A stretch of DNA of 64,000 nucleotides. Source: Alphaproteobacteria bacterium. GTDB taxonomy: Bacteria > Pseudomonadota > Alphaproteobacteria > SMXQ01. The position numbers and the translations under genes were made by a program. Of the stretch, positions 31,351 through 51,081 are shown one piece after another; within the stretch, counting starts at the first letter, position 1, and every line of letters begins with the position of its first letter. The notes beneath the pieces are model-generated. The model was given only the letters and a program-made list of their open reading frames with translations. It ran no database searches and had not been told where the DNA came from. Location of the stretch: assembly GCA_038145705.1 (NCBI GenBank), contig JAYQQF010000004.1, positions 75,523 through 139,522 on the forward strand, written 5' to 3'.

Positions 31351-34596
<3,246 letters not shown>

Positions 34597-40365: not shown

Positions 40366-41649
40366 ATGACCGCTTCCCCCGGCCCCGCCGGCGCCGCGCC
40401 GCGCAAGGCCCAGTCGTTCGCTGCCCTTCGCCATCCCGCCTGCCGTGTCTACCTGGTGGGCACGATGCTGGCGATGATGGCCGACAACATCGAGCACGTC
40501 ATCAGCTACTGGATCATCTACCAGAAGTTCCGCTCGCCTGCGCTCGCTGGCTTCGCCGTCATTTCCCACTGGGCGCCTTTCCTGTTCTTCTCCGTCTATG
40601 CGGGCGCGCTTGCCGACCGCTTCGACCCACGGCGCGTCATCCAGGCCGGGATGGGCCTGTTCATGGTGGCATCGGCAGGATGGGGCGTTCTGTTCCTGAC
40701 CGATACGCTGGAGCCGTGGCACGCAGCCGTACTTCTGGTGATCCATGGCCTTGCAGGGGTGCTGTGGGGACCGGCATCGCAGCTGATCATCCACGACATC
40801 GTCGGGCGGACCCAGTTGCAAAGCGCGATCCGCCTGATGTCGACGGCGCGCCAGCTGGGCCTCTTGATGGGCCCCGCCGTCGGCGGCGGCATCCTGCTGC
40901 TGATGGGCCCGGCCTGGGGAATCCTGTTCAACACCCTGATCTACCTGCCGCTCACCCTGTGGCTGGTCAACGCGCCATTCGGACCCAAGTTCCGCGATGC
41001 GGGACAGGACGCGCCGAAGCGGCGCCACGCCGGCGGCTTCGCCGATATCATGGCCACCATGAAGATGATCGCCGGCAACAAGATCATCGTCTCGATGGTC
41101 ATGCTGGGCGGCATTGCGTCGCTGATCGTCGGCAATGCCCATCAGGCGCAGATGCCCGAATTCGCCCACGACCTGGGCCACGCCAATGCGGGGCTGCATT
41201 ATTCGATCCTGCTGACGGGCGGGGCTGCGGGCGCGCTGGTCGGCGGCATCATACTGGAGAGCCGCAACCTGCTTGCACCCAACCCGCGCACGGCTTTCGT
41301 GCTGGTGATCCTGTGGAGCATCTCTATTGCCGTCTTCGCCCTGACCAAGACGTACGAGATTGCTGTCGCGGCCATTTTTGCCGCGGGGTTCCTCAACCTC
41401 GCCTATGGCTCGATGAACCAGACCCTGGTGCAGCTTCACGCGCCCGAAGAAATACGCGGCCGCGTGATCGGCCTTTACAACATGTCGGCGCACGGGCTCA
41501 GAACGTTCTCGGGCGTGACCGTCGGCTTCGGCGGCAGCCTGATCGGCGTGCACTGGTCGCTGGCGCTGTCGGCAATGGCGCTGCTGGCGCTCACCGTCGG
41601 ACTGTTATCGTTCACGAGCTGGGCACGGCCCGGCCGCGGTACCGCGTAA
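40366..41649 (+). CDS. MFS transporter (EntS/MFS_1-like)
   Basis: 12 TM helices, GRVIGLYNMSAHGLRTFSG. Internal Met start with AGGA..GGAA ribosome-binding site. Confidence 0.8.
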   Translation: MTASPGPAGAAPRKAQSFAALRHPACRVYLVGTMLAMMADNIEHVISYWIIYQKFRSPALAGFAVISHWAPFLFFSVYAGALADRFDPRRVIQAGMGLFMVASAGWGVLFLTDTLEPWHAAVLLVIHGLAGVLWGPASQLIIHDIVGRTQLQSAIRLMSTARQLGLLMGPAVGGGILLLMGPAWGILFNTLIYLPLTLWLVNAPFGPKFRDAGQDAPKRRHAGGFADIMATMKMIAGNKIIVSMVMLGGIASLIVGNAHQAQMPEFAHDLGHANAGLHYSILLTGGAAGALVGGIILESRNLLAPNPRTAFVLVILWSISIAVFALTKTYEIAVAAIFAAGFLNLAYGSMNQTLVQLHAPEEIRGRVIGLYNMSAHGLRTFSGVTVGFGGSLIGVHWSLALSAMALLALTVGLLSFTSWARPGRGTA

Positions 41650-41650
41650 G

Positions 41651-43096
41651 CTAGCGCGCGAGAAGCGAATCGCCGACCGTCGCGCAGACCCGGTCGATGA
41701 CCCGAAACGCCGATTTGAGGCGGCCACGGGCGACACGGTCGAGGCGGGCAAGATCGACTAGGTTTCCCGCTGCCTGCCCCGCCGCGATATCGGCAAGCTG
41801 CTGTTCGAGGACGAGCCGCATCAAAGTTTCGTGCGCTTCGTCGAGCGCCACCGCATCCGCAGCCGCCAGCTTTCCCCGCGCCCGCGCCTCCGCGAGCCTT
41901 CTCGGCGTCGCCGTGCCGCCGAATCCGGCAGCAAGCGCCAAAAGGCGCGCGCCGGCGGTGACCGGCAGCAATCCGAAGCGCTTGAGGTCGACCCTGCCTC
42001 CGTCGCTGCGCAGAATGCCGAAGGGACCGATCGCCGAACCCATTCCTGAAACATTTGCATGCAGCAGCTTGAGGAAAGGATAGGCCCGTGAAGCCGCCTT
42101 CACCGCGTAGTCGCGCAAGCGCGCGGCAAGCGTCGCATCGCCCCAGACGGGCACGGCATCGAAGAAGATATCGACGTTGAGCAGATCTTCGGGTTTCGAG
42201 CGTGCGATCCAGCCGTCCACCCGCTTCTGCCACCCGGCGAGGCTGGCGCGCCAGGCTGGTTCCGAGACCATGACCTTGCCCTTGCAGTAGGGCATTCCGG
42301 CCTCATCCAGAATGCGCGTCAGGCGCGCACCGAAATCGGCAAACCACGCATCAACACCGTCGTCGCCCGCATGGACGAGGGCATTGTCCTGATCGGGGGC
42401 CAGCAGGCTTTCCCCCCGCCCCGCCGAACCCAGAACCAGCACGGCGAAGGCCGCGGGCGCTTCGCCCCGCCCCGCCGCCGCCATTTCCGACGCCGCGAGT
42501 TCGGCCGCACGCGCCACCGTGTCGCGCAGCACGGCGGAAATGACACGGGCCACGCCGCGCCCGGATACCTCGTCGTTCAGAAGCCCCTGCGCCAGCGGAG
42601 GCAGGCGCGCGAGCGCCTTGCCGAGTGCCTGTGCATCGGCCGCGGCTTCGACCTCGTCACCGAGCACCAGCGCCGCATTGGCGCGCAACCGCAGCAGGGC
42701 TCCTGCCGCCACGACGCCCGCAAGCGTTCCGTCGGCCGCAGTGACGGCAAGGTGGCGAATGCCGAGCCGCGCCATGCGCGCGATCGCCACATGCAACAAC
42801 GCATCGGCCCGCACCGTCGCCACCGGCGCACTCATGACATCGCCGAAGCGGATCGCCGCGGCGCCTTCGCCTTCGCGCGCAAGCGCCCGCAGCACGTCGC
42901 GCTCGGTCACGATCCCGACAGGCCGTCCGGCGGGATCGACCGCCAGCAGGCTGCCGACGCCGTGCCCGGCCATGAGCTGCGCCGCCTCGATCAGGGATAT
43001 GTCGGGGCTGGCGGTGACAGGGGGCGACGACATCACATCGGCGACCTTGCGGCGGTAGGGAAAACTGTCGAGACGGTCGAGACCCGAGGTGTCCAT
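41651..43096 (-). CDS. tandem-CBS domain protein fused to DUF294 nucleotidyltransferase-like domains
   Basis: Two CBS motifs (VADVMSSPPVTASPDISLIEAAQLMAGHGVGSLLAV.., ..FGDVMSAPVATVRADALLHVAIARMARLGIRHLAV) followed by GSAGRGESLLAPDQDNALV, the GS-x9-DxD nucleotidyltransferase signature. Internal Met start 2 nt after the upstream stop. Confidence 0.7.
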   Translation of the reverse strand: MDTSGLDRLDSFPYRRKVADVMSSPPVTASPDISLIEAAQLMAGHGVGSLLAVDPAGRPVGIVTERDVLRALAREGEGAAAIRFGDVMSAPVATVRADALLHVAIARMARLGIRHLAVTAADGTLAGVVAAGALLRLRANAALVLGDEVEAAADAQALGKALARLPPLAQGLLNDEVSGRGVARVISAVLRDTVARAAELAASEMAAAGRGEAPAAFAVLVLGSAGRGESLLAPDQDNALVHAGDDGVDAWFADFGARLTRILDEAGMPYCKGKVMVSEPAWRASLAGWQKRVDGWIARSKPEDLLNVDIFFDAVPVWGDATLAARLRDYAVKAASRAYPFLKLLHANVSGMGSAIGPFGILRSDGGRVDLKRFGLLPVTAGARLLALAAGFGGTATPRRLAEARARGKLAAADAVALDEAHETLMRLVLEQQLADIAAGQAAGNLVDLARLDRVARGRLKSAFRVIDRVCATVGDSLLAR

Positions 43097-43098
43097 CG

Positions 43099-44463
43099 CT
43101 ACCACCCCGCTGCCCGCTGGCGGGCGATTACCCGGGTTGCCGTCGCGGCGAAGGCGCGCGCACCGCCCAGCGTCGTGATGCCGCGTTCGGCCAGCCGCGC
43201 TATCAGGCGGCGCCACAACTCGGCCGTAACCAAGGCGTCGCCCAGCGCCGTGTGGCGGCCGAACACGGCAACGCCGTGACGGGCGGCGACATCTTCGAGA
43301 TCGAGCGCGACTTCGTGGGGGTCCAGCGCCGCAGCGATCTGGCAGGTATCTATCGTCACCGGCGCCACCCAGACGACGCCCGCGCGCGCCGCCTCGGCGT
43401 TCAGGACGGCGAGATCGAAACCGATGTTGTGACCGATGACGATGCTGTCGCCGATCAGCGAGCGGACATCGCCGGCGAACGCGCTGAAGGGCGGGGCATG
43501 AGCCACAGTCGCATCCGCGATCCCGTGAACAGCGGTGGATGCCCGCGGGATGGGTACGCCCGGGTTGACCAGCGCATCAACTGCCGCGGCGCGAAAAAGG
43601 CTCGTCCCGTACATACGAACCGCTCCGATGGCGACGATCCGCTCGATCGCGGGATCAAGGCCGGTCGTCTCGACATCAAGAACCGTGACCGGCAGCGCGG
43701 CGAGTCCGGTATCGTCGGCGGGTGCCGGAGATTCGGGCGGCAAGTCATGCAGCGAAAGATCATGTGCGACTTCGGCCGCCGCATAACCGTCGTTGCACGC
43801 TATAGCCAGCACCGCACCACCGTCGTCGGACAAAAGCGTGACCCGCGCATCGAAGAACTGGCTGTCGACGGATTCGATCCTGACAAGGACCGATCCACCC
43901 GCGGCGCGCGCCTGGGCAAGCGCCGCATCCACGGACTCGCGCGACAGGGCGGCAAAAACACTGGTGCCGACTTCGACCCGCGGTGCGCCGAGCAGGGCCC
44001 GCGCCATGCCATTGACGAGGCTGACCTGACCGTTGGCGGTGATGACGACGACCGCCTCGTTCAAGGCGCCGAGAACCGCGGCCAGGCGGTTGTCAGGCGT
44101 GCTCGCGCGGTTGCGACTGTCATCGGCGAGAGATAAAAGCGCCTCGCGCAGCTGGCCCGCCTCGGCATCCTCGGCGATAGGGAAATTCTCCCCCACCCGG
44201 TCGCCGGCCCTGAGCGCGACGGCGAGGCCCCGCAGCCGCGCGATATCCCTGAAATGCCCGTCGAGCGCGTCGCGCAGCAGCCAAAGGGCGCCGAGTGCCA
44301 GCACCATGCCGGCAATGACCATTCCGGCAAGAATGCCGGGCCGGGCCAGGTCGGGCGGACCGAAAATCATCGCCAATGCCACCGTCCCGGCAAGCAACAG
44401 TCCCGCGGCCGCAACCGCCATCACCACCATCGACATCAGATGGGTGGAGGTGCGGCGCGCCAT
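43099..44463 (-). CDS. membrane-anchored PAS-like sensor fused to DEDDh 3'-5' exonuclease (DnaQ/RNase T-like)
   Basis: Two N-terminal TM helices, a PAS-like segment LNEAVVVITANGQVSLVNGMARALLG, Exo I motif LDVETTGLDPAIERIVAIGAV, and later HTALGDALVTAELW (Exo III HxxxD). Confidence 0.75.
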   Translation of the reverse strand: MARRTSTHLMSMVVMAVAAAGLLLAGTVALAMIFGPPDLARPGILAGMVIAGMVLALGALWLLRDALDGHFRDIARLRGLAVALRAGDRVGENFPIAEDAEAGQLREALLSLADDSRNRASTPDNRLAAVLGALNEAVVVITANGQVSLVNGMARALLGAPRVEVGTSVFAALSRESVDAALAQARAAGGSVLVRIESVDSQFFDARVTLLSDDGGAVLAIACNDGYAAAEVAHDLSLHDLPPESPAPADDTGLAALPVTVLDVETTGLDPAIERIVAIGAVRMYGTSLFRAAAVDALVNPGVPIPRASTAVHGIADATVAHAPPFSAFAGDVRSLIGDSIVIGHNIGFDLAVLNAEAARAGVVWVAPVTIDTCQIAAALDPHEVALDLEDVAARHGVAVFGRHTALGDALVTAELWRRLIARLAERGITTLGGARAFAATATRVIARQRAAGW

Positions 44464-45089
44464 TACATGCCCCTGCCGTCCGGGCCAACAGTCATGTCCC
44501 GCGCCACGGCGGCGAAGTCGGTGCGCTTGGCCAGTTTTTGCCAGCCCGCCATGGTGCGAAACCGTACCGAATTGACGACGAGATCCTCGTCCGGGCGCCG
44601 CATGTCAGGATGCAGCGGCAAATATTCGAAGATATGCGCGCCCGCGGTTGCGGCGATGTCGTCGCTGGTACGCGGCAGATGCTTCTGCGCTTCGGCCAGG
44701 CGCGCGGCCAGTGCCTCGGCAAGGCCACCCCAGCCCGTCTCGCGGTGAGCGGGCGGCGGATGGAGGCCGAGTTCGGCGGCGAAAGTGCTCACCAGCCGGG
44801 TGGCCAGACGCTGCGCATCGCTTCCCGCGTGGGCGCGAAGTCTGCCTTCGGCAATGACGAAAAGATCGGCAAGTACAGCCGCGAAGGCCTCCCAGCGGGT
44901 CACCTCCAGCGCCTCGAGAAAAGGTTTTTCCGAAAACAGCCGCGGCCCCATGAAGCCCGTACGGGCGCGCAGATAGGCATATGTCGAGCTTTGCGCCACA
45001 TGGGCCGCCTCGCCGGCAAGTGCTTCGAAAAATGCCTGTTCCGTCACGACCGGTGAACCGCCGGACAGCGCCCCGAACCAGTTCCGCAT
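44463..45089 (-). CDS. hypothetical protein (about 208 aa), first gene of the exonuclease/DUF294 operon
   Basis: Internal Met of ORF 44463..45497. Its stop overlaps the exonuclease ATG (TAATG). No family recognised, and the start is uncertain. Confidence 0.45.
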   Translation of the reverse strand: MRNWFGALSGGSPVVTEQAFFEALAGEAAHVAQSSTYAYLRARTGFMGPRLFSEKPFLEALEVTRWEAFAAVLADLFVIAEGRLRAHAGSDAQRLATRLVSTFAAELGLHPPPAHRETGWGGLAEALAARLAEAQKHLPRTSDDIAATAGAHIFEYLPLHPDMRRPDEDLVVNSVRFRTMAGWQKLAKRTDFAAVARDMTVGPDGRGM

Positions 45090-45423
45090 CCGAGCGGCAA
45101 CCCCAGCCAGCCCTGCTTTCAACGCGATACCCCCTGTAATACGTAGATTGTATACGGTGATGCCTAATAACAATACATCTTGGAATTGTTCTTTTCGCCA
45201 AAACCCATGATAATGGCATTTCGTTGCCTTGCCACATCGAAGCCACTCGCAATGATCAAGACATAGGCAACAAGAGGGACCGGTTCCGTTTTGAGCCGGT
45301 GGGGACGGTTCCAAAGCCCGCGGGCGAAGGAACCTGCAACAAGTGCCGGGGGACGGAAGCGCAGCTTCCGGGAATGCGGCATAGAACCGCGACCGCCTCG
45401 GCTTTAGAGAGAGGGGGTCATTC
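45090..45423. promoter_or_regulatory. AT-rich divergent promoter region
   Basis: About 330 bp with several segments below 40% GC (taatacgtagattgtatacggtgatgcctaataacaatacatcttggaattgttc), lying between divergently oriented operons. Confidence 0.4.
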
Positions 45424-45687
45424 GTGTCAGACGTACCGCCGGAAAAGGCCGCCGCGCACTGGGCAAAAACCCGGTCGCTCATGTGGACGTGCCTCACGAT
45501 TTGGTTTCTCGCCAGCTTTGTCGTTCATTTCTTCGTCGCCACCCTGAACAAGGTGGTCATCCTCGGTTTCCCGATCGGCTTCTACATGGCCGGCCAGGGA
45601 TCTCTCATCATCTTCGTCGTCCTGATCTTCTGGTATGCCCATCGCCAGAACGCCATCGATGAAGAATTCGGCGTTGCCGAAGACTAA
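45424..45687 (+). CDS. DUF4212-family small membrane protein (putative small subunit of sodium:solute symporter)
   Basis: 87 aa, two TM helices, FPIGFYMAGQGSLIIFVVLIFWYAH. Immediately precedes the SSS gene. Confidence 0.7.
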   Translation: MSDVPPEKAAAHWAKTRSLMWTCLTIWFLASFVVHFFVATLNKVVILGFPIGFYMAGQGSLIIFVVLIFWYAHRQNAIDEEFGVAED

Positions 45688-45705
45688 GCCGGGACGGAGA
45701 AGAAA

Positions 45706-47451
45706 ATGATAAAAGGCGACTTCATCAGCAATCTCGGCCGCATCTACGGTTTTTACACCGGCGGCTTCATCGCGTTCGTCCTGCTGCTCGCCGTGCTCGA
45801 GCAGATGGGCGTTCCCAACCGGATCATCGGCTACCTGTTCGTGTTCCTGACGATTGCGGTCTATGCCGTGATCGGCATCCTCGCGCGAACGGCGCAGGTG
45901 TCTGAATACTACGTCGCGGGACGCAGGGTTCCGGCGCTGTACAACGGCATGGCCACCGCCTCCGACTGGATGAGCGGCGCGTCCTTCGTCGGTATGGCCG
46001 GCTCGCTCTACATCCTCGGTTACGACGGCCTTGCCTTCGTGCTGGGCTGGACGGGCGGCTACGTGCTGGTCGCGGTGCTGCTGGCACCGTACCTGCGCAA
46101 GTTCGGGGCGTTCACGGTACCTGACTTCCTCGCCGTGCGCTTCGGCGGCAACCCCGCCCGCGTGGCCGGCATCATCGTGCTGTTTGCATGCTCCTTCACA
46201 TACGTGACGGCGCAGATCTACGCGACGGGCATCATCGCGTCGCGCTTCCTCGGCCTGCAGTTCGAGGTGGCCGTCTTCGTCGGCCTGATCGGCATCCTGC
46301 TGTGTTCGATGCTCGGCGGCATGCGGGCGGTGACCTGGACCCAGGTGGCCCAGTACATCATCCTGATCATCGCCTACCTTATCCCGGTGGTGTGGCTGTC
46401 GGCCAAGATCACCGGCGTACCGATCCCGCAGATCATGTACGGCGGCATCCTCGAGAAGATCACCGCGATCGAAAAGACCATCGGCATCACCAAGGCGCAT
46501 ACTCAGCCGTTTACCGACTACAACATGCTGAACTACTTCGCCCTGATCCTGTGCCTGATGCTGGGCACGGCGTCGCTGCCGCACATCCTGATGCGCTACT
46601 TCACCACGCCAAGCGTGCGTGACGCGCGTATCTCGGTCGGCTGGTCGCTGCTGTTCATCTTCCTGCTGTACTTCACGGCGCCGTCCTACGCGGCCTTCGC
46701 GAAGTACGAGGTGCTGACCAACGTGGTCGGACAGCAGATCGCTTCGCTTCCGGGCTGGGTCAAGGCCTGGGGCCAAGTCGGCCTGGTGACGGTAACGGAC
46801 CTCAACAAGGACGGCATCCTCCAGTGGGCGGAACTCAAGATCAATACGGACGTCATCGTTCTGGCGACGCCCGAGATCGCGGGTCTGCCCTATGTGGTTG
46901 CCGGCCTGGTGGCCGCGGGCGGTCTTGCCGCCGCGCTGTCCACCGCCGACGGTCTGCTGCTCGCCATCGCCAACGCGCTCAGCCACGACATCTACTACAA
47001 GATGGTCGACCCGCAGGCAGACGCGAAACGACGTCTTATCGTCGCCCGTGTCCTGCTCATCGTCGTGGCTGTGTTCGCGGCATGGCTTGCCAGTACGAAA
47101 CCCAGCGACATCCTGTCGATGGTCGCCTGGGCCTTCTCGCTGGCGGCATCGGGGCTGTTCCCGGCCCTCGTGCTCGGCGTGTGGTGGAAACGCGCCAACA
47201 CGGCCGGCGCCGTCGCGGGCATGATCGCCGGCTTCGGCGTCTGCCTCTACTACCTGATCGGCACCCGCTACTTCGGAATGCCCGAATGGTTCGGCGTGAA
47301 GAATATTTCCGCCGGCCTGTTCGGCATTCCCGTCGCGTTCGTCGTGACCTGGGTGGTCAGCCTGCTGACGCAGGCCCCGTCCAAGGAAATGATGGACTTC
47401 GTGGATCGCATCCGCGTTCCGCGTGGCGGCCCCGTCATGCAACAGGACTAG
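45706..47451 (+). CDS. sodium:solute symporter family transporter (VC_2705 / ActP-like subgroup)
   Basis: About 581 aa, 13-14 TM helices, GRRVPALYNGMATASDWMSGASFVGMAG, the SSF signature region. GGAGAAG ribosome-binding site. Confidence 0.85.
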   Translation: MIKGDFISNLGRIYGFYTGGFIAFVLLLAVLEQMGVPNRIIGYLFVFLTIAVYAVIGILARTAQVSEYYVAGRRVPALYNGMATASDWMSGASFVGMAGSLYILGYDGLAFVLGWTGGYVLVAVLLAPYLRKFGAFTVPDFLAVRFGGNPARVAGIIVLFACSFTYVTAQIYATGIIASRFLGLQFEVAVFVGLIGILLCSMLGGMRAVTWTQVAQYIILIIAYLIPVVWLSAKITGVPIPQIMYGGILEKITAIEKTIGITKAHTQPFTDYNMLNYFALILCLMLGTASLPHILMRYFTTPSVRDARISVGWSLLFIFLLYFTAPSYAAFAKYEVLTNVVGQQIASLPGWVKAWGQVGLVTVTDLNKDGILQWAELKINTDVIVLATPEIAGLPYVVAGLVAAGGLAAALSTADGLLLAIANALSHDIYYKMVDPQADAKRRLIVARVLLIVVAVFAAWLASTKPSDILSMVAWAFSLAASGLFPALVLGVWWKRANTAGAVAGMIAGFGVCLYYLIGTRYFGMPEWFGVKNISAGLFGIPVAFVVTWVVSLLTQAPSKEMMDFVDRIRVPRGGPVMQQD

Positions 47452-47554
47452 GAAACGGTGGGCGGCTCCGGGGAACCGGAGCCGCCCCGCCCTCCGCGGG
47501 GCCGGCGGCCAGGACGGCGCGGTCCCGTTTCTTTTTTCTTACCGGTAGCTTCCG

Positions 47555-47872
47555 ATGCAGGCCGATCCCTTCCAGCTCCAGTTCCTGCCCTTCCACGTGA
47601 TCAACTACGCACTGGCCGCGGTGTTCTACACCCTGATCGGCCGGTCCATCCTCGGCGTGTTCGTGCGCCAGGATTCCCAGTTTTTCGTCATGCGCTTCTT
47701 CCGCCTGATCACCGAGCCCTTCATGAAGGCGTTTCGCTTCATGACCCCGGGCTTCATGCATCCGGCGCTGGCGCCGCTCTATGTCGGTTTCTGGGTTTTC
47801 CTGATCCGGCTGGTCTTCGGCCTCGTCATGCTCAATTATGGCCTCGCGCCGCGGCTGTCCGCAGCCGCCTGA
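47555..47872 (+). CDS. YggT-like small integral membrane protein
   Basis: 105 aa, two TM segments, sequence pattern compatible with YggT/Ycf19. Weak. Confidence 0.45.
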   Translation: MQADPFQLQFLPFHVINYALAAVFYTLIGRSILGVFVRQDSQFFVMRFFRLITEPFMKAFRFMTPGFMHPALAPLYVGFWVFLIRLVFGLVMLNYGLAPRLSAAA

Positions 47873-47886
47873 GGAGAATTTTCATC

Positions 47887-49131
47887 ATGTCATCGTCCAC
47901 CGTCGCGCCCGAATCGCCGGGCTGGCGCATCCCCCTCGTGGTACTCGCCTGCGGCACCGTCATCCTGATCCTGTCCGTGGGCATCCGTCAGAGCTTCGGC
48001 CTGTTCATGGACCCGATGTCGTCGACCCGCGGCTGGGGACGCGAGGCCATGGCGCTGGCGCTCGCCACCCAGAACCTCGTCTGGGGGCTGAGCCAGCCGT
48101 TCATCGGCGCCATCGCCGACAAGTGGGGCTCGGGCAAGGTGGTGGCCGTCGCGGGCGCGATGTACGCCTTCGGCCTCTACCTGATGTCCCAGGCGGTAAC
48201 ACCGGCCGATGTGCTGATTTCGAACGGCTTTCTCATCGGCCTTGCCCTGTCGGGCTGCGGCTATCCGGTGGTGCTGGCGGTCATCGGCCGTTCGGTACCG
48301 GAAAACAAGCGCAACCTGTTCATCGGCATTGCCTCGACCGGCGGCTCGTCGGGCCAGCTTGCGGTGATCCCGCTGTCGCAGGTGTTCATTTCATCCTCGG
48401 GCTGGCCGGTGGCACTCCTGATGCTCGGAGGCATGGCGGCGCTGATCGTCCCCATGGCCGCCACCATGGTCGGCACGAAAAAGGCCCCCCGTCCCGGCGC
48501 CATGGCCGAACAAACCCTGCGTGCGGCCCTGGCCGAAGCCGCGCTCCATCGCGGCTTCGTTTTCCTGACCATCGGCTTCTTCGTCTGCGGCTGGCAGATC
48601 GGCTTCGTCGCCGCCCACCTGCCCGCCTTCCTGTCCGACCACGACCTGCCCGGCACTGTCGCCGCGTCGGCGCTGGCGGTGATCGGGCTGTTCAACATCC
48701 TCGGCACCTTCACGGCGGGAATGCTGGGTACACGCCTGCGCCAGAAGCACGTTCTTGCCGCCATCTACTGCCTGCGCGCCATCGTCATCGGTGTCTTCGT
48801 GCTGATGCCGAAAACGCTGCCCGTGGTCATGGTTTTCGCCGCCGCCGTCGGCTTCCTGTGGCTGGCGACAGTGCCCCTGACATCCGGCCTGGTCGCGCGC
48901 ATCTTCGGCGTGCAGTACATGGCGACGCTCTACGGCATCGTTTTCATGAGCCACCAGATCGGCAGCTTCTTCGGGGTCTGGCTGGGCGGCAGGTTGTTCG
49001 ACGAAACCGGGTCCTACGACGTGATCTGGTGGGGCTCGGTCATCCTCGGCTTCGCCGCGACGATCCTGCATATTTCCATCGACGACCGGCCGACCGACCG
49101 CGTCATCGCCGCCCGCGCCGCGGCGACGTAG
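47887..49131 (+). CDS. MFS transporter (oxalate/formate antiporter-like, OFA family)
   Basis: 12 TM helices, GLSQPFIGAIADKWGSGKVVAV. GAGGAGAA ribosome-binding site. Internal Met of ORF 47458..49131. Confidence 0.8.
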   Translation: MSSSTVAPESPGWRIPLVVLACGTVILILSVGIRQSFGLFMDPMSSTRGWGREAMALALATQNLVWGLSQPFIGAIADKWGSGKVVAVAGAMYAFGLYLMSQAVTPADVLISNGFLIGLALSGCGYPVVLAVIGRSVPENKRNLFIGIASTGGSSGQLAVIPLSQVFISSSGWPVALLMLGGMAALIVPMAATMVGTKKAPRPGAMAEQTLRAALAEAALHRGFVFLTIGFFVCGWQIGFVAAHLPAFLSDHDLPGTVAASALAVIGLFNILGTFTAGMLGTRLRQKHVLAAIYCLRAIVIGVFVLMPKTLPVVMVFAAAVGFLWLATVPLTSGLVARIFGVQYMATLYGIVFMSHQIGSFFGVWLGGRLFDETGSYDVIWWGSVILGFAATILHISIDDRPTDRVIAARAAAT

Positions 49132-50464: not shown

Positions 50465-50526
50465 TCCGCCCTCCCTGCTTGCTGATGTCCATTGTAGCGG
50501 GGCTGGCTTTGCGCGACCATGCCCCC

Positions 50527-51081
50527 ATGAGCAAGGCCTTTACAAAAGAATCGGACGGCGACGACGGTTCGGACGAGTTGCCCGATGCGCCCGCCCTTCC
50601 CAAGGGAACGCGCAATTACATGACGCCGGAGGGCTTCCGTCGCCTGCAGGACGAATTGACTCATTTGGTGAAGGTGGAGCGGCCGAAGGTCGTCGAGATC
50701 GTCTCCTGGGCGGCGGGGAACGGCGACCGTTCGGAAAACGGCGATTACATCTTCGGCAAGCGACGGCTCGGCGAAATCGACCGGCGCACGCGGTTCCTGC
50801 GCAAGCGGCTGGAAATCGCCGTCGTCGTCGATCCGGCGGAGCAGCGCAACCGCGAGCAGGTATTTTTCGGCGCGCGCGTGACCTATGCCGATGCAAAGGA
50901 CCAGGAACGCACCGTCCGCATCGTCGGCATAGATGAAGCGCGCATCGAGGAAGGCGAGGTCAGCTGGATCGCCCCCATTTCCCGCGCCCTGATGCGCGCG
51001 CGCGTCGGTGACGTGGTCGAACTTCGTTCGCCTGCCGGCATCGAGCAGATCGAAATCATCGAGATTTCCTACGACGCCTGA
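50527..51081 (+). CDS. greB: transcription elongation factor GreB (GreA/GreB family) with acidic N-terminal extension
   Basis: TPEGFRRLQDELTHL...WAAGNGDRSENGDYIFGKRRLGEIDRRTRFL is co-linear with E. coli GreB. Confidence 0.8.
   Translation: MSKAFTKESDGDDGSDELPDAPALPKGTRNYMTPEGFRRLQDELTHLVKVERPKVVEIVSWAAGNGDRSENGDYIFGKRRLGEIDRRTRFLRKRLEIAVVVDPAEQRNREQVFFGARVTYADAKDQERTVRIVGIDEARIEEGEVSWIAPISRALMRARVGDVVELRSPAGIEQIEIIEISYDA

Follow-up and report, generated by a model that had tools for sequence, protein, structure and literature searches.

Why should a nucleotidyltransferase be coupled to a membrane-held exonuclease and stand back to back with a sodium:solute symporter? This question is raised by a locus in a 64,000-nt stretch of contig JAYQQF010000004.1 from an alphaproteobacterium (hereafter the window; coordinates count from its first letter). 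The open reading frame (ORF) map has three coupled minus-strand genes, for a protein of an uncharacterised family here called HYP, a PAS-DEDDh exonuclease and a DUF294 nucleotidyltransferase (NTase), diverging from plus-strand genes for a small DUF4212 membrane protein and a VC_2705-family symporter. A first, sequence-only reading of this DNA had proposed that the three genes form a tightly coupled operon, and the junctions bear this out: the exonuclease ATG and the HYP stop TAA share base 44463 to give a TAATG overlap, and a 2-nt gap (43097-43098) lies between the enzyme genes, where the exonuclease TAG is followed by 'CG' and then by the DUF294 ATG. Its domain assignments are also correct by Pfam and NCBIfam models, and the CBS, DUF294, DUF294_C, RNase_T and DUF4212 models that it had named for a check all matched. 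Our comparison across genomes narrows the question in two steps: the two enzymes are one unit, and the whole locus is well supported as one regulatory-plus-transport module.

More than 2,276 DUF294 homologues were scored, and we analysed the 80 loci returned when a DUF294 alignment was run against one genome per species. An exonuclease domain lies directly upstream of DUF294 on the same strand in 72 of these 80 loci, and in 50 the two are a single exonuclease-NTase ORF of about 700 aa. Fusions in the database (P0215, P0251 and P0257) have the order RNase_T-CBS-CBS-DUF294-DUF294_C. This arrangement shows that the exonuclease and the NTase make up one conserved functional unit, in many cases a single polypeptide.

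Linkage to transporters is seen as well. Of the 80 loci, 36 contain a VC_2705 symporter with DUF4212, about 24 of them in the adjacent, divergent arrangement of the window, and classical ActP with YjcH is found in five further loci; an ActP-family symporter lies within 10 kb in about half of all. In the reciprocal, symporter-anchored scan, which used metagenome contigs, 17 loci were well flanked: DUF294 is found in 10 of them (about 60%) and HYP in 11, with both in seven and HYP alone in four. At more distant symporters (41-44% identity), DUF294 and the exonuclease follow downstream in the same orientation, and HYP is absent. The reciprocal linkage of exonuclease and DUF294 to symporters and SLC5 kinases holds in Alpha-, Beta- and Gammaproteobacteria. 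The sequence-only reading had named such a recurrent linkage; the neighbourhoods confirm it, and the association had already been published for Gammaproteobacteria (10.1101/072470; PMC5715377; PMC9927547).

Gene order varies among the distant versions. On the Ruegeria TM1040 megaplasmid the order is DUF4212, SSS, cNMP-CBS-DUF294, a 172-aa protein and a 2TM-PAS-like-DEDDh exonuclease (2TM, two transmembrane helices). On plasmid 1 of Paracoccus denitrificans PD1222 (L093, 624884-631784) one operon starts with CBS-DUF294 and ends with a TM-PAS-DEDDh exonuclease, and the genes between encode an 81-aa 2-TM protein, an SSF-domain histidine kinase and a response regulator. The enzyme pair at this locus brackets a transporter-like sensor kinase, not a transporter. 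In five Magnetospirillum/Rhodospirillaceae loci (L012, L013, L016, L018 and L021) DUF294 diverges from classical ActP and YjcH, the ActP being 65-72% identical to that of E. coli; none of the five has an exonuclease directly upstream of DUF294, and in L016 the exonuclease is about 1.7 kb downstream on the opposite strand. The relatives of DUF294 in the plasmid collection are only 30-35% identical paralogues, though they proved informative.

About a decade of genetics on the exonuclease/DUF294 pair precedes this analysis. Price et al. (10.1101/072470) gave genetic evidence that a lactate/D-alanine symporter requires DUF4212 as its small subunit, and found cofitness of the neighbouring COG2905/RNase T gene with DUF4212, and of DUF4212 with the symporter downstream. 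Sepulveda and Lupas (PMC5715377) assigned Pflu5625 (cNMP-CBS-NTase), which follows an ACTU motif, to the CrbS/R regulon, and as described by Henriquez et al. (PMC9927547), the NTase PP_0354 and the exonuclease PP_0353 are encoded in one operon under ErdR control, while the PAO1 pair (PA3233/PA3232) adjoins actP/yjcH. According to these accounts, the NTase/exonuclease pair of Pseudomonas, Vibrio and Shewanella is a member of the CrbS/R (MxtR/ErdR) regulon (PMC5715377; PMC9927547), and PA3232-3235 are reported as co-induced on propionate. Moreover, growth of P. putida on pyruvate was described as poor in the exonuclease mutant and in the actP-I mutant, and not in the NTase mutant (Henriquez et al., PMC9927547). 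The statement of the sequence-only reading that no biochemical function has been assigned is still current, as a September 2026 preprint calls the function unclear.

The NTase gene matches CBS twice (E 6e-26), DUF294 (E 1.6e-37; PF03445, 128.9 bits against a cut-off of 21) and DUF294_C (E 7e-29; PF10335, 100.9 bits against 22.5), with the tandem CBS pair N-terminal to the NTase core. No cNMP_binding domain was matched by Pfam in the window NTase, whereas the full COG2905 architecture of Pseudomonas and Ruegeria has one; the window protein is a short architectural variant of COG2905. The catalytic motif, earlier given as GS-x9-DxD, has to be corrected to G-x11-D-x-D (G223-S224-x10-D235-x-D237), which does not vary among 78 homologues of the window protein. 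Two further acidic residues are D313, also invariant in the 78, and D309, conserved in at least 90%. By structure the protein belongs with the GlnE/GlnD/DrrA-type NTase plus helical C-domain fold, GlnE-N being the top match. The rest of the top 60 structural matches are nearly all CBS pairs, and the remainder are further DrrA entries; no structure of the CCA-adding, poly(A), kanamycin-NTase, cGAS, OAS or MNT type is among these 60. Anantharaman et al. (PMC3710099) likewise put DUF294_C in one group with the C-domains of GlnD, GlnE and DrrA.

The exonuclease matches PF00929 (RNase_T) over residues 261-416 with 78.3 bits against a cut-off of 24. Its motifs are Exo I D263/E265 (LDVETTGLD), Exo II D350 and Exo III H404/D409 (HTALGD); all five residues are invariant in 42 homologues, and the DEDDh residues are kept in 72 of the 73 exonuclease domains of the 80 loci, fused forms included. 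Judged by their conserved residues, both enzymes appear catalytically competent. Two strongly hydrophobic segments (aa 6-37 and 39-67) stand at the N-terminus of the exonuclease. The PAS match of the window protein (21.8 bits) is just below the Pfam gathering score of 22.6; among the 42 homologues PF00989 is found in 25 (best E 9.5e-7) and PAS_8 in 18. The sequence-only reading had called the membrane anchoring unusual. The 2TM-PAS extension is indeed a minority form, present as in the window in seven of the 72 loci, but it is no oddity: the database holds at least 600 homologues of the same length, and such exonucleases recur in distant versions of the system (Ruegeria, Paracoccus). An identity with replicative dnaQ was rejected, as both models failed (TIGR01406, 73.4 bits against 222.7; PRK05711, 66.4 against 196).

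On the plus strand, the DUF4212 protein (Pfam E 1.5e-28; TIGR03647, 96.2 bits against 26.05) has two hydrophobic segments, and the symporter gene, 18 nt downstream, scores 755.7 bits with TIGR03648 (cut-off 320.75). The call of a VC_2705-type sodium:solute symporter with DUF4212 therefore stands, but its likening to ActP does not: the window protein is not an ActP orthologue (TIGR02711, 156.8 bits against 1099; PRK09395, 193.8 against 750), and it is far below the cut-off of the MctC model. A gene at 47555-47872, which had not been mentioned earlier, encodes a YGGT-like protein (weak YGGT match, E 2e-4, below cut-off; third-codon-position GC, GC3, 0.88). Its homologue is downstream of the symporter in 26 of the 80 DUF294-anchored loci and in most symporter-anchored loci, and the gene thus seems to be a third, hitherto unrecognised part of the VC_2705 transporter operon and the sixth gene of the module. 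It is well supported that the plus-strand genes (DUF4212, the symporter and the YGGT-like gene) import a small monocarboxylate or related acid: relatives elsewhere take lactate or D-alanine, and the linked ActP types acetate or pyruvate. In addition, 21 of the 80 loci encode, a few kb past the symporter, a 122-aa membrane protein without Pfam match (e.g. L057:16109-16477), which is absent from the window.

HYP is a real conserved family without known domain. A word index gave 40 homologues and a profile search 783 clusters at 50% identity. Residues F57, R65, W66, D75, W120, L157, P158 and F177 are invariant, and a loop HPxPAHRxxGW is conserved. The AlphaFold2 model is confident and all-helical (pLDDT 93.4), and no relative of this fold was found among solved structures. 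Gene callers start HYP at ATG 45089; the start is probably TTG 45122, which has AGGGGG 7 nt upstream (a good Shine-Dalgarno) and gives an N-terminus that matches homologue P0122. The sequence-only reading had counted HYP as part of the enzyme association, and here it has to be revised, because HYP tracks the transporter rather than the enzyme pair. In the DUF294-anchored loci HYP and the symporter are both present in 32 and both absent in 40, with eight discordant cases, mostly at contig ends (Fisher p 1e-13). HYP is found in 32 of the 44 symporter-anchored loci with enough upstream sequence, and it also adjoins DUF4212-SSS at loci without exonuclease or NTase. This near-perfect co-occurrence with the symporter, together with its presence without the enzymes, makes HYP a component of the transporter module and not a core of the enzyme pair; it heads the enzyme operon when the transporter and enzyme modules are joined. 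One ENA contig of 2097 bp (P0295) encodes a single 419-aa protein in which HYP (residues 16-208) is fused to the DEDDh exonuclease (224-381). The fusion may be genuine, but we give it little weight, because it comes from one 2-kb contig and an error of 1 nt where stop and start overlap would also produce it.

What does the unit do to the transporter? We tentatively favour a switch of monocarboxylate uptake by reversible, sensor-gated nucleotidylylation, a possible reading that we would still call short of probable. The NTase would covalently nucleotidylylate a protein of the uptake system, which may be the symporter, its small subunit, HYP or a linked SLC5-type sensor, and uptake would go down. 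The DEDDh domain would remove the nucleotide, or trim an oligonucleotidyl chain, with release of 5'-NMP, and uptake would be restored. The CBS pair may set the balance by the adenylate or energy state, and the PAS domain, which the 2-TM hairpin would keep at the membrane, may add a second signal, in analogy to GlnD/PII/AmtB or GlnE/glutamine synthetase. The writer/eraser pair on the transporter that the sequence-only reading had suggested fits the fusions, the GlnE/DrrA fold, the cofitness and the pyruvate asymmetry, while its chemistry we infer. Inhibition of uptake by the NTase product, reversed by the exonuclease, would predict just this asymmetry of a pyruvate defect in the exonuclease mutant and none in the NTase mutant. 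The asymmetry fits any model of opposing activities, and only the fold evidence favours a protein target. A wider version seems to us doubtful, on the unlikely side: that a DnaQ-fold exonuclease acts as a protein de-nucleotidylylase or as a trimmer of oligonucleotides linked to proteins, and makes with a GlnE/DrrA-like NTase a covalent switch of the GlnD/PII style at the membrane, which gates SSS monocarboxylate transporters and SLC5-type sensor kinases, with HYP as adaptor or target on the transporter side in Alphaproteobacteria.

Several points weigh against the switch. We know of no DEDDh enzyme that de-nucleotidylylates proteins. By sequence, the exonuclease domain is closest to the DNA 3'-5' exonucleases PolC, DinG, DnaQ and Cas2-DEDDh. 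Sequence similarity of the NTase to GlnE is weak (hhalign with the E. coli protein is marginal, E 0.0048, or about 0.005, probability 7%, with the catalytic motif in register), and hhalign gave no match to GlnD, so homology to GlnD by sequence was rejected. GlnE-N, the top structural match, is the AMP-removing domain; thus the fold alone does not tell whether DUF294 is a writer or an eraser. In about half of the exonuclease-DUF294 loci, no symporter lies within 10 kb. No Tyr, Ser, Thr or His is invariant in HYP, some members having Phe in place of Y39, and HYP was found neither in the plasmid collection, with its distant Ruegeria-type loci, nor at eight distant symporter loci. It therefore cannot be a universal nucleotidylylation target and, rejected as such, remains a candidate only. 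Finally, the published mutant phenotypes, as reported, are mild (PMC5715377; PMC9927547; the September 2026 preprint).

The first alternative is control at the RNA level, in which the NTase would tail an RNA 3' end with non-templated nucleotides and the DEDDh domain trim it, so that expression of the transporter is set rather than its activity; the RNA could be the symporter mRNA, its structured leader or a small RNA. Pairs of tailing and trimming enzymes are well known, the exonuclease domain is by its sequence a bona fide nucleic-acid 3'-5' exonuclease, and the leader of DUF4212 is GC-rich and moderately structured (folding somewhat better than shuffled sequence, z -2.5). Price et al. (10.1101/072470) speculated that the COG2905/RNase T gene is needed for symporter expression, and offered for the Sama and Psest clusters no mechanism beyond 'required for expression'; Henriquez et al. 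(PMC9927547) speculated on mRNA degradation. Even so, the NTase fold matches the protein-AMPylating GlnE and DrrA and not the CCA-adding, poly(A) or TUTase-type enzymes, Pfam detected no RNA-binding domain and Rfam no element, and conservation is lacking in the intergenic region. A membrane-tethered exonuclease beside a transporter would also be more natural for a protein substrate, though RNA is still conceivable for it. We regard control of RNA as unlikely, if worth keeping in mind.

Somewhat less likely again is a nucleotide second messenger. Here the NTase would make a linear or cyclic (oligo)nucleotide, the exonuclease would degrade it and HYP or the transporter would be the receptor, while the sensor domains (CBS and PAS, and cNMP-binding in other lineages) would tune synthesis and breakdown. 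Opposing activities fused to each other and to sensor domains are typical of second-messenger turnover enzymes, both fusions and sensor domains are seen here, and the asymmetry of the exonuclease and NTase mutants fits equally well. On the other hand, PADLOC gave no CBASS-type or other defence-system match for the NTase, no recognisable receptor domain is present, and the characterised members of the GlnE/GlnD/DrrA fold group are all protein-modifying enzymes (PMC3710099). That there is no functional unit at all, the exonuclease being a housekeeping or repair DnaQ paralogue or a defence part beside the transporter by coincidence, is very improbable: the public annotation 'DNA polymerase III subunit epsilon' and the generic DEDDh models of PADLOC that match the exonuclease speak for it, but the dnaQ equivalog scores far below cut-off, the gene order and fusions in the 80 loci, the reciprocal linkage in three proteobacterial classes and the published co-regulation and cofitness speak against it, and the synteny, the fusions and the PADLOC result already contradict it. 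The defence reading was rejected likewise, as PADLOC returned generic DEDDh matches only, and none for the NTase or HYP.

Compared with known systems, the cluster is an architectural variant with split enzymes, a 2TM-PAS anchor, no cNMP-binding domain and HYP present. As published, the Pseudomonas pairs (PP_0354/PP_0353, PA3233/PA3232 and Pflu5625) have the same core Pfam architectures, with NTase and exonuclease in one operon. They differ in that the cNMP-binding domain is an additional N-terminal one, and that the NTase gene precedes the exonuclease gene, whereas in the window the exonuclease comes first. The published descriptions, on which this comparison relies, mention no TM/PAS region and no HYP gene, and Henriquez et al. 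(PMC9927547) found PP_0353 to lack a secretion signal. The PAO1 transporter is described as a true ActP with YjcH (DUF485), unlike the VC_2705 and DUF4212 proteins of the window. The clusters Sama_1522-1525 and Psest_0346-0349 of Gammaproteobacteria have DUF4212, a VC_2705-type symporter for D,L-lactate or D-alanine and a COG2905/RNase T neighbour; by analogy with the Ruegeria-type loci, they probably lie on one strand and have no HYP.

GlnE and GlnD share with the window system the G-x11-D-x-D motif and a logic in which one protein has two opposing activities under the control of sensor domains for small molecules, and GlnD acts via PII on the transporter AmtB. The opposing activity, however, is a DEDDh exonuclease in the window system, a second NTase domain in GlnE and an HD domain in GlnD, and the sensors are CBS and PAS rather than ACT. 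DrrA/SidM of Legionella is a secreted effector acting on host Rab1, without CBS or PAS sensors and without transporter context, and its de-AMPylase SidD is PP2C-like. DnaQ (Pol III epsilon) has the same DEDDh fold and motifs, but the window exonuclease differs in its 2-TM anchor and PAS segment and in being coupled or fused to an NTase.

The association in Gammaproteobacteria was known before; the fusion evidence, the HYP family, the kinases and regulators inside the loci and the distant 2TM-PAS exonucleases are new. The question is thereby narrowed, since the enzymes are one unit, the NTase groups structurally with protein AMPylators and the unit is tied to SSS-fold membrane proteins. HYP, until now an unannotated family, and the YGGT-like gene are defined as parts of the VC_2705 transporter module. 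If the nucleotidylylation switch is true, carboxylate uptake would gain a new, post-translational control and the DEDDh fold a new activity.

An SLC5-domain hybrid histidine kinase (PAS_7, HisKA, HATPase, REC) is encoded inside 18 of the 80 loci and a REC-LuxR regulator inside 11 (the CrbS/RpuS-like kinase of about 1170 aa at L055:5013-8573 and in 17 other loci; the regulator for example at L072:11691-12362). In alphaproteobacterial loci these genes stand between symporter and HYP or flank the enzyme operon; no SLC5-type kinase or LuxR-type regulator adjoins the window cluster. ACTU-like sites TTAGACCAAAGTnTAA and TACGACAAAAGTCGTA occur in the divergent spacers of L017, L032, L046, L056 and L063, and also in L057 and L079. 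Their presence in Ferrovibrio and other alphaproteobacterial loci suggests CrbR-type control beyond the Gammaproteobacteria. The window spacer has no match to the ACTU-type inverted repeat within five mismatches.

The spacer itself had been described as an AT-rich region of 330 bp. Only its core (45125-45265) is AT-rich, with 42% GC against 64% for the whole window, and the length is about 301 bp with the TTG start of HYP, against 334 bp otherwise. The promoter scan found two back-to-back sigma70-like matches at 45207-45256 (two sites against 0.8 expected). The 5' leader of DUF4212 (45262-45430, plus strand) contains GGGACCGGTTCC twice, 25 nt apart, and a GGTTCC/GGAACC palindrome, the repeats and palindrome spanning 45276-45334. 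A riboswitch or known RNA was rejected, as the Rfam scan of 41000-48000 found no family and one chance match only. A conserved operator was rejected too: neither a dyad and k-mer search nor a MAFFT alignment of 25 spacers gave a block in common with the window spacer. Public gene calls place a 72-aa ORF at 45164-45382 (minus strand) within the spacer (seen in L001-L003); it looks spurious, because it overlaps the promoter core and leader and has no Pfam hit on record.

Table 1. Positions of the genes of the locus, their subregions and the divergent control region in the window.
Feature	Position	Strand	Remarks
CBS-CBS-DUF294-DUF294_C nucleotidyltransferase (NTase)	41651..43096	-	481 aa
NTase: CBS pair	about 42677-43045		
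NTase: NTase core	about 42191-42607		
NTase: helical C-domain	about 41681-42076		
Membrane-tethered PAS-DEDDh 3'-5' exonuclease	43099..44463	-	454 aa; RNase_T E 1.2e-21
Exonuclease: 2-TM hairpin	about 44263-44448		
Exonuclease: PAS-like segment	about 43774-44091		
Exonuclease: DEDDh domain	about 43204-43692		
HYP, all-helical, uncharacterised family	44463..45122	-	219 aa from TTG 45122, or 208 aa from ATG 45089
Divergent control region	45123..45423	none	AT-rich core and GC-rich DUF4212 leader
DUF4212 / TIGR03647 small membrane symporter subunit	45424..45687	+	87 aa, GTG start
VC_2705-family sodium:solute symporter, large subunit	45706..47451	+	581 aa; TIGR03648 755.7 bits
YGGT-like membrane protein	47555..47872	+	105 aa; weak YGGT match

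The flanking genes lie outside the module; they encode a TauD-family dioxygenase, MFS transporters, an SNF-family transporter and a GreA/B-like factor. The GreA/GreB-like elongation factor is encoded at 50479-51081 (plus strand), 3 kb off the cluster; in P. fluorescens greA adjoins the DUF294 gene pflu5625 with a common ACTU site, and the parallel may be a coincidence. About 7 kb off the cluster on the other side, a multi-PAS histidine-kinase-like coding region (31876-34536) resembles the CrbS-like kinase in its PAS and kinase parts only, at 28-32% identity, and we call it unrelated.

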